Below are positions 596 to 713 of a DNA stretch of 64,000 bases, piece by piece. Position numbers and translations under genes: made by a program. The notes beneath the pieces were generated by a model. That model was given only the letters and a program-made list of their open reading frames with translations. It searched no databases and had not been told where the DNA came from. The DNA is from a bacterium (GTDB lineage Bacteria > UBA10199 > 2-02-FULL-44-16 > DYJF01). The stretch is from NCBI GenBank assembly GCA_041739675.1, contig JBGSNL010000039.1, positions 9,927-73,926 of the forward strand. The letters run 5' to 3'. Every line of letters starts with the position of its first letter. Within the stretch, counting starts at the first letter, position 1.

Positions 596-611
596 TGCGT
601 GCGCCGTGCCA
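596..611 (-). promoter_or_regulatory. Putative sigma54 -24/-12 promoter of comM
   Basis: Minus strand TGGCACGGCGCACGCA has exact GG-N10-GC spacing and a perfect TGGCACG; the -12 side (ACGCA) deviates from TTGCA. Confidence 0.55.
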
Positions 612-651
612 AGATCGCCCGTGAATTTTAGAAGAGATTTTTGTGCCGCAC

Positions 652-688
652 TGTCCGATTTTCATGCAGGCTGCTTGAAAATCATGCA
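652..688. promoter_or_regulatory. Two tandem enhancer-like (bEBP UAS-like) boxes upstream of comM
   Basis: TGTCCGA-TTT-TCATGCA (652-668) and TGCTTGA-AAA-TCATGCA (672-688), 20 bp apart; a near-identical box occurs at 23936-23952. Confidence 0.55.
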
Positions 689-689
689 C

Positions 690-713
690 CACTAGTGACT
701 TGACACTAGTGTC
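690..713. repeat. Tandem palindromes CACTAGTG-N6-CACTAGTG in the comM/trxB divergent intergenic region
   Basis: CACTAGTG at 690-697 and 704-711; the second extends to the perfect 12-bp palindrome GACACTAGTGTC (702-713). Confidence 0.6.

Follow-up and report, generated by a model that had tools for sequence, protein, structure and literature searches.

How is comM, whose product is the helicase that drives branch migration during natural transformation of Gram-negative bacteria, switched on in a clade whose close members are all uncultured? To our knowledge, almost nothing is known of the control of DNA uptake and recombination in uncultured bacteria, and the competence switches known to us (ComK, ComX, Sxy/TfoX-CRP) operate in a few cultured groups only. 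The locus that raises the question lies at one end of a 64,000-nucleotide stretch of DNA from an uncultured hot-spring bacterium (GTDB lineage UBA10199; assembly GCA_041739675.1, contig JBGSNL010000039.1), called the window below, in which comM and the thioredoxin reductase gene trxB diverge from a 183-bp intergenic spacer.

Judging from the sequence, we consider it likely that comM is transcribed from a sigma-54-dependent promoter in this spacer, that an activator site further upstream switches this promoter on, and that the same arrangement serves a small shared regulon. The elements concerned are present, are conserved among relatives, keep a fixed geometry and co-vary between genomes. An earlier reading of the window, here called the original prediction, had proposed a sigma-54/enhancer-controlled regulon of DNA-uptake genes and was aware of none described. 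We likewise found no description in the literature searched of such an enhancer/sigma-54 regulon, or of sigma-54 control of comM/yifB. The features on the comM side are as follows.

1 to 582, minus strand: comM (YifB/ComM Mg-chelatase-like AAA+ helicase; Pfam ChlI), of which the N-terminal 194 codons lie in the window
596 to 611, minus strand: sigma-54-type promoter TGGCAC-GGCGC-ACGCA, with GG at 610-609 and GC at 598-597, identified by conservation
623 to 643, minus strand: A/T-rich A-tract block (AAAAATC...TAAAAT on the comM strand) between boxes and promoter, partly conserved in alignment A2
652 to 668, minus strand: promoter-proximal box TGCATGAAAATCGGACA (comM strand), putative activator site, centre at about -75
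672 to 688, minus strand: promoter-distal box TGCATGATTTTCAAGCA (comM strand), putative activator site, centre at about -95

Putative promoter and paired boxes upstream of comM

Close relatives of ComM were collected by a protein search and then through the contigs encoding them, which gave L164 (86% identical to the ComM of the window), L162 (83%), L165 (80%), L163 (78%), L166 (75%), L168 (69%) and L169 (66%). These close relatives are all metagenome-derived, from hot springs, wetlands and sediments, and their submitters labelled them Deltaproteobacteria, Pseudomonadota or plain 'bacterium'. The full-length ComM protein P0001 matches TIGR00368 YifB (5e-173). A distant comparison set consisted of 160 comM loci among the matches listed by contig and metagenome scans, with ComM identities of 45 to 55%. 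All 160 were used as the negative set; one of them, L004 (about 55%), is a member of the same broad clade. The 'clade' counts given below refer to nine genomes: the window, the close relatives named above and L004.

On the minus strand, positions 611-596 read TGGCACGGCGCACGCA, that is, GG-N10-GC, where the original prediction had placed it. The -24 half of the element is perfect, the -12 half is ACGCA, and the spacing is exact in all nine clade genomes. Upstream of comM, TTGGCA[CT]-N5-NNGCA is invariant in the same nine genomes while the flanks have diverged; TTGGCA and GCA are invariant columns of alignment A2, in which mean column identity is 61%. The element lies 28 to 29 nt before the comM ATG in the close relatives, and likewise in L004. 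Among the 160 distant loci listed, L004 alone has this promoter at that place; it was found there in 0 of the other 159, one of which has such an element elsewhere, at -110. A simple promoter scan called no sigma-70-type promoter in the comM-trxB intergenic region. It is this conservation, and not a match score, that makes the GG-N10-GC element of comM credible.

The distance to the gene depends on where comM begins. The gene caller puts the start at ATG 594, which would set the start codon inside the promoter. We place it at ATG 582 (MLSKVYS...), because the orthologs are 507 amino acids long, because in L162 a TAG stop codon stands in frame 12 nt ahead of the common ATG, and because the third-position, codon-like pattern of substitutions in the alignment begins at this codon. 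Counted from the -12 GC, the ATG then follows after 13 to 14 nt in nine of nine clade genomes. At sigma-54 promoters, transcription begins 12 nt downstream of the C in the -12 GC; for comM, a start near position 585, 2 to 3 nt ahead of ATG 582, would be predicted.

Further upstream, the boxes at 652-668 and 672-688 read TGTCCGATTTTCATGCA and TGCTTGAAAATCATGCA, respectively. Both are inverted copies of the 17-mer TGCAYGATTTTCNNGCA, with centres 20 bp apart (19 to 21 in relatives). The TTT/AAA flip shows that they are inverted relative to each other, an orientation missed by the original prediction, which had been right about the presence of the two boxes and their 20-bp spacing. The pair as a whole is a 37-bp palindrome with its centre at 670 and 28 of 37 positions self-complementary, and each 17-mer is itself dyad-symmetric (TGC-NN-GA-NNN-TC-NN-GCA). 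A degenerate version of the box pattern is matched six times in the window compared to 1.17 expected, a number that none of 100 shuffles reached. The pair is kept upstream of comM in nine of nine clade genomes, down to a ComM identity of about 55%; the motif is thus conserved upstream of comM orthologs, as the original prediction would have it.

The arrangement has the properties of an upstream activator site: two dyad TGC-N11-GCA boxes of about 17 bp on the same helical face, within about 70 to 150 nt upstream of the promoter, with helical phasing kept. TGGCAC lies 77 to 79 nt from the boxes, counted from their first base, in the window, L164, L165 and L004, and 88 to 90 nt in L162, L163, L166, L168 and L169. 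These two classes lie one helical turn apart, as predicted for activation by an enhancer that depends on the face of the helix. The A-tract block in between could be a bend or an IHF-type site; no good IHF consensus was seen in it by eye.

In geometry, the closest known relative of this layout is the NtrC/sigma-54 promoter glnAp2 of E. coli and Salmonella. There, too, two 17-bp dyad sites with outer TGC...GCA lie on one helix face, about 80 to 140 nt upstream of GG-N10-GC, across a bendable spacer, and all-or-none activation would be expected in both cases. The inner part of the box differs, being ACC-N5-GGT at glnAp2 and GATTTTC here, as does the spacing (32 bp compared to 20 bp here). Moreover, the promoter here directly adjoins the start codon, the target genes are ones that handle DNA, and only candidates exist for the activator.

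A second comparison is with the Sxy/TfoX-CRP-S regulons of Haemophilus, Vibrio and E. coli, in which comM is also co-regulated with DNA-uptake and processing genes through a shared upstream site; these use sigma-70, and both the regulator family and the site geometry differ. The boxes might nevertheless be CRP-S-type sites, since comM belongs to the CRP-S regulons of gamma-proteobacteria. A site of the CRP type is a single 16-bp core, TG[TC]GA-N6-TC[AG]CA, at -41 or -61 from a sigma-70 start, whereas the boxes seen here are 17-bp TGC-N11-GCA sequences with a GATTTTC core, paired 20 bp apart at -75 and -95 and followed by TGGCAC-N5-NNGC. No single 16-bp core TGCGA-N6-TCGCA at -41/-61 of a sigma-70 promoter was found in this region, and we give this explanation almost no credence.

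As the boxes lie between two divergent genes, they could belong to either. The features on the trxB side are the following.

690 to 711, no strand: two CACTAGTG palindromes, 14 bp apart, in an insert that varies by lineage and separates the boxes from the trxB promoter
714 to 742, plus strand: putative sigma-70-type trxB promoter TTGCTT-N17-GAGATT, read from aligned relatives
766 to 1683, plus strand: trxB (thioredoxin reductase; Pfam Pyr_redox_2, 2e-55), the divergent neighbour of comM

Synteny of comM and trxB is kept in eight of the nine clade genomes and lost in L169. For scoring, a position matrix was trained solely on boxes found upstream of comM, in the window and in six relatives, and the second site described below was left out. 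The comM boxes of L169 score 31.5 bits, although this genome lies outside the training set and lacks the trxB neighbour, so the boxes go with comM and not with trxB.

This bears on another explanation, in which the boxes are the operator of a conventional sigma-70 regulator, for example of trxB under redox stress, and TGGCAC...GC is a coincidence or an element of the 5' untranslated region. The boxes do adjoin the TTGCTT-N17-GAGATT element, which is present in all relatives retaining the trxB neighbour and is missed by the simple promoter scan. The distance between the two varies from 1 to 25 nt, however, so that no geometry is fixed on this side, while the distance from the boxes to the comM -24 element stays in helical register. 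A possible -10 element is the conserved TAAAAT-like block that precedes TGGCAC by about 25 to 30 nt, but it has no -35 partner, and the long leader it would imply has no ribosome-binding site. A known enhancer-binding protein, PexR of Myxococcus xanthus, acts as a dual activator and repressor at a housekeeping promoter (PMC12754779), which lends the idea a precedent. Against it stand the invariance of the GG and GC dinucleotides at exact spacing, and the occurrence of the same boxes ahead of perfect sigma-54 promoters at the second site and in the distant genome L173. We regard a sigma-70 operator as very improbable.

A sigma-54 promoter directed toward trxB was considered and rejected: TTGCT is present there, with no GG at the right spacing by eye. 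The CACTAGTG palindromes occur only twice in the whole 64-kb window. One copy is found in L164 (about 1100-1115), three degenerate ones in L165 (about 5380-5425), and none in L162, L163, L166 or L168. A CACTAGTG hairpin followed by a T-run, as a small RNA or a terminator-like attenuator, was also rejected (absent from most relatives; fold z-score -2.1). The array is not part of the comM switch; it may be a variable operator array of trxB or a small mobile palindrome. In the window Rfam finds tRNAs only, and no RNA family in the comM-trxB intergenic region.

A second site between two lipoprotein genes

If the boxes bind a regulator, one would expect to meet them at other genes. The original prediction had pointed to a similar pair 23 kb away, between a ComEC-like and a lamin-tail gene. 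The features of this locus, site 2, are listed here.

23916 to 23952, no strand: site 2, the second copy of the paired boxes (23916-23932 and 23936-23952), between two divergent genes
24001 to 24016, plus strand: canonical sigma-54 promoter TGGCACATGAATTGCT, serving the Big_5/lamin-tail gene (ATG 24038)
24038 to 25117, plus strand: lipoprotein with Big_5 and lamin-tail domains (Pfam Big_5, 1e-9; LTD, 1e-8)
23858 to 23872, minus strand: sigma-54-like element TGGCAC-N4-TTGCA facing the ComEC-type gene, its spacer one base short
22866 to 23843, minus strand: stand-alone ComEC-type metallo-beta-lactamase (nuclease-domain) lipoprotein (TIGR00361 ComEC_Rec2 positions 441-660, 1.1e-27)

Scored with the comM-only matrix, site 2 reaches 36.0 bits, which bears out the similarity. 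By comparison, the best pair per simulated 64-kb sequence (n = 200) scored 8.4 bits on average and 24.3 at most, and no box pair above 18 bits was present in 1.12 Mb of unrelated comM loci. The comM site of the window and site 2 are identical at 26 of 37 positions. Relatives of site 2 were available from L170, L171 (on the same contig as L166) and L172, in addition to the distant L173; lamin-tail orthologs were found on the same contigs as comM orthologs. The boxes are kept in L170, L171 and L172, with scores of 28 to 33 bits.

The promoter of the lamin-tail gene at 24001-24016 is the sole zero-mismatch TGGCAC-N5-TTGCT in the window. Its distance to the boxes is 85 nt in the window and 86 nt in L170 to L172 (four genomes), and this distance is fixed while the length of the lamin-tail leader varies greatly among relatives. 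The leader has been expanded by CCACAGAGGCACGGAGGCACAGAG-type repeats and a long hairpin-rich insert (L170, 6175-6215; L172, 2455-2515; L171, 5825-5990). A gene for a Glu/Leu/Phe/Val-type amino-acid dehydrogenase (25169-26299) lies 51 to 155 nt downstream of the lamin-tail gene in the window and in L170 to L172; its nearest NCBIfam model is the tryptophan dehydrogenase ScyB, with a score below cut-off.

On the other side, ATG 23843 of the ComEC-type gene comes 15 nt after the GC of the element that faces it (14 to 15 nt with the relatives included), and this element is 80 nt from the boxes in both the window and L170. The TGGCAY-N4-TTGCA spacing is kept in the window, L170 (6027), L171 (5570) and L172 (2236), with differing spacer letters, and the element has the canonical N5 spacing in L173 (4176). 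Either a promoter with a spacer one base short is functional in this clade, or selection maintains the N4 element as a weak site or a decoy.

The product of this gene carries a lipoprotein signal, read from its sequence, and its closest solved structures are ComEC domains (PDB 9ic4, 3e-26; 30bt, 3e-23). The name 'ComEC-like' given in the original prediction is correct, because the best family and structure matches are to the C-terminal, nuclease domain of ComEC (1e-27 for that part of TIGR00361). The protein is not a ComEC channel.

Co-variation of the boxes and the putative activator

A more distant relative shows these loci with changed boxes. L004, which contains comM, and L173, which contains the lamin-tail ortholog, are parts of one 1.09-Mb contig and lie about 20 kb apart; the NusA of this genome is 72% identical to that of the window. 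Its boxes read TGCCGCCATTTG-N12-CAAATGGCGGCA at three loci: comM, the gap between the ComEC-type gene and the lamin-tail operon, and a REP-associated tyrosine-transposase-like gene. The three sites are identical to one another at 32 to 34 of 36 positions, and to the boxes of the window at only 16 to 17 of 36; with the matrix of the window clade they score at most 7 bits. All four promoters of the L004/L173 genome are canonical and 76 to 78 nt from the boxes, with the ATG 13 to 14 nt after the GC. Boxes that change in concert at separate loci are the mark of a single regulator acting on its regulon, and this co-variation is the strongest evidence for the central proposal of the original prediction, namely that one enhancer-binding protein and sigma-54 co-regulate dispersed genes. 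The comparison of genomes gives strong support to the regulatory part of that proposal, in that shared boxes and -24/-12 promoters link comM, the ComEC-like gene and the lamin-tail gene; 'competence regulon' is a tentative label for the set.

As to the scope of the set, the 64-kb window has just two DNA-related loci; the boxes mark both of them, and 0 of about 50 housekeeping genes. Beyond comM and the nuclease/lamin-tail locus, no further box pairs were found in the window or in loci L001, L004 and L162 to L172. Genes for comEA, comEC proper, comF, dprA and type IV pili are absent from the 64-kb window. The transposase-like gene of L173 (1105-1940; Y1_Tnp; NF047646, 5e-15) has its promoter fused to the ATG. 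Y1_Tnp genes without boxes adjoin comM in L165 and L166, and the ComEC-type gene in L171.

We infer from these elements that an enhancer-binding protein binds the boxes, that sigma-54 is used, and that transcription starts where the promoter predicts. Two dimers of one NtrC-class enhancer-binding protein would bind the two dyad boxes at about -75 and -95, assemble there into an active ring and loop over the A/T-rich spacer; the ring would then remodel the sigma-54 RNA polymerase held at TGGCAC-N5-ACGCA (611-596). At site 2 the same activator would serve the canonical lamin-tail promoter, and probably also the divergent ComEC-type gene. Together, the comM, lamin-tail and ComEC-type genes would make up one small regulon, silent until a signal reaches the activator.

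Candidates for the activator come from the relatives. L162 encodes a receiver/sigma-54-activator protein with the GAFTGA motif (4061-5413), 4.6 kb from comM, and L169 a giant kinase-GAF-activator protein with GAFTGA, also NtrC-class; the position of these genes relative to comM is not conserved. In the window, a HAMP-PAS histidine kinase (9828-11708) downstream of the trxB, DUF3187, TonB-receptor cluster has no adjoining response regulator; the counterpart cluster of L162 (4061-6795) continues with an NtrC-class response regulator. A response regulator of the L162 type is one candidate, among others, for the box-binding protein. PexR was rejected as the activator, its sites being CACCG-N6-CGGTG (PMC12754779). 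Its system is nevertheless similar in several respects: an enhancer-binding protein acts on repeated dyad sites between two divergent genes, a housekeeping promoter has a sigma-54 promoter beside it, and short or absent leaders were noted for the neighbouring gene. It differs in its site sequence, in its targets (ahpC and katB) and in that its leaderless transcript comes from a sigma-A promoter.

A predicted property of most of these genes is the near-absence of a leader. The predicted leaders, computed from sequence, are 2 to 3 nt for comM (start at about 585), about 4 nt for the ComEC-type gene and 2 to 3 nt for all four L004/L173 genes, which leaves no room for a ribosome-binding site. An mRNA of comM would then have next to no leader. 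The exception among these genes is the lamin-tail gene of the window, for which a start at about 24027 and a leader of about 11 nt, beginning GGGAGG, are predicted. The original prediction, correct as to the elements upstream of comM, had overlooked this layout, and no report of leaderless sigma-54 transcripts was found in the literature searched.

Several points weigh against a sigma-54 regulon devoted to transformation. Taken alone, the comM element is a chance-level match: with two mismatches allowed, the sigma-54 consensus occurs 20 times in the window compared to 25 expected, which is not significant. Its -12 part is [AC]GCA and not TTGCA, sigma-54 promoters do not usually have leaders of only 2 to 3 nt, and no RNA run was found to contain the sequence. 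In model organisms, shortening the spacer by one base, as in the element facing the ComEC-type gene, is reported to abolish the activity of sigma-54 promoters. Neither rpoN nor an activator gene is present in the window, and no RpoN box in the close loci. Finally, comM is the only established transformation gene of the set, and ComM homologs are also found in bacteria not known to be competent.

Possible roles of the proposed regulon

What would such a regulon do? The presence of ComM and of surface DNA-handling lipoproteins in one set points to DNA capture plus recombination. The role we infer as most likely is the capture and processing of extracellular DNA together with ComM-driven recombination, in other words natural transformation.

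In the literature searched, PilR-type control of pilin and the requirement for rpoN1 in Ralstonia solanacearum are the only links between sigma-54 and competence (PMC6528607, PMC4371752). The PilR/PilS (Npa/Nps) systems with RpoN are similar in that part of the apparatus for transformation is activated by sigma-54 together with an enhancer-binding protein. They differ in that the target there is pilin, the effect on competence is indirect and the site motif is another one, whereas here the targets are comM and surface lipoproteins. For the products of site 2, the nearest parallels are the lipoprotein Hvo_1477 of Haloferax volcanii, some homologs of which also carry a ComEC-type metallo-beta-lactamase domain (PMC3929857), and ExeM of Shewanella. 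These combine lipoprotein, lamin-tail-like, nuclease and ComEC-type metallo-beta-lactamase features in surface DNA handling. In the window, by contrast, the domains are split over two divergent genes, and their proposed sigma-54 regulation together with comM is new.

The same sigma-54/enhancer design could also serve a regulon that scavenges extracellular DNA as a nutrient under phosphorus or nitrogen limitation, in response to an NtrC-like signal, with comM as a passenger or in a repair function. In their outer TGCA...GCA the boxes are similar to NtrC sites, both products of site 2 are surface lipoproteins, and the lamin-tail gene is followed by the amino-acid dehydrogenase gene in the window and in L170 to L172. 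In Haloferax volcanii, moreover, growth on DNA needs a lipoprotein in which a nuclease domain and a lamin-tail-like domain are joined (PMC3929857). However, ComM is cytoplasmic, acts on incoming single-stranded DNA in recombination and has no evident nutritional role, and yet comM is the most constantly regulated member of the set (nine of nine genomes); nor do boxes mark any gene of phosphate or nitrogen assimilation, whether in the 64 kb of the window or in the roughly 150 kb of loci from relatives. We consider a nutrient regulon unlikely as an account of the whole set; for the genes of site 2, DNA as food is a live alternative.

Returning to sigma-54 control of a DNA-handling regulon, its machinery would be classical; the target set, the box motif and the fusion of promoter to ATG are new. 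A conserved cis code, made of a paired box spanning 37 bp and a -24/-12 promoter at a fixed spacing from it, ties ComM to surface DNA-handling proteins. This code opens the way to listing the regulon by genome scan, to searching for the activator through box co-variation, and to testing in a heterologous host. The placing of the promoter against the ATG also poses the question of how sigma-54 transcripts with leaders of 2 to 3 nt get translated. More tentatively, and with less confidence than we attach to the promoter and its activator site, a dedicated sigma-54 activator may control how this large, uncultured clade acquires DNA, with promoters fused to start codons and leaderless mRNAs, and with a regulon comprising comM, the free-standing ComEC-type nuclease, the lamin-tail lipoprotein as a DNA-binding protein and probably the uptake machinery encoded elsewhere. 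If this is true, it would represent a new class of competence master switch.

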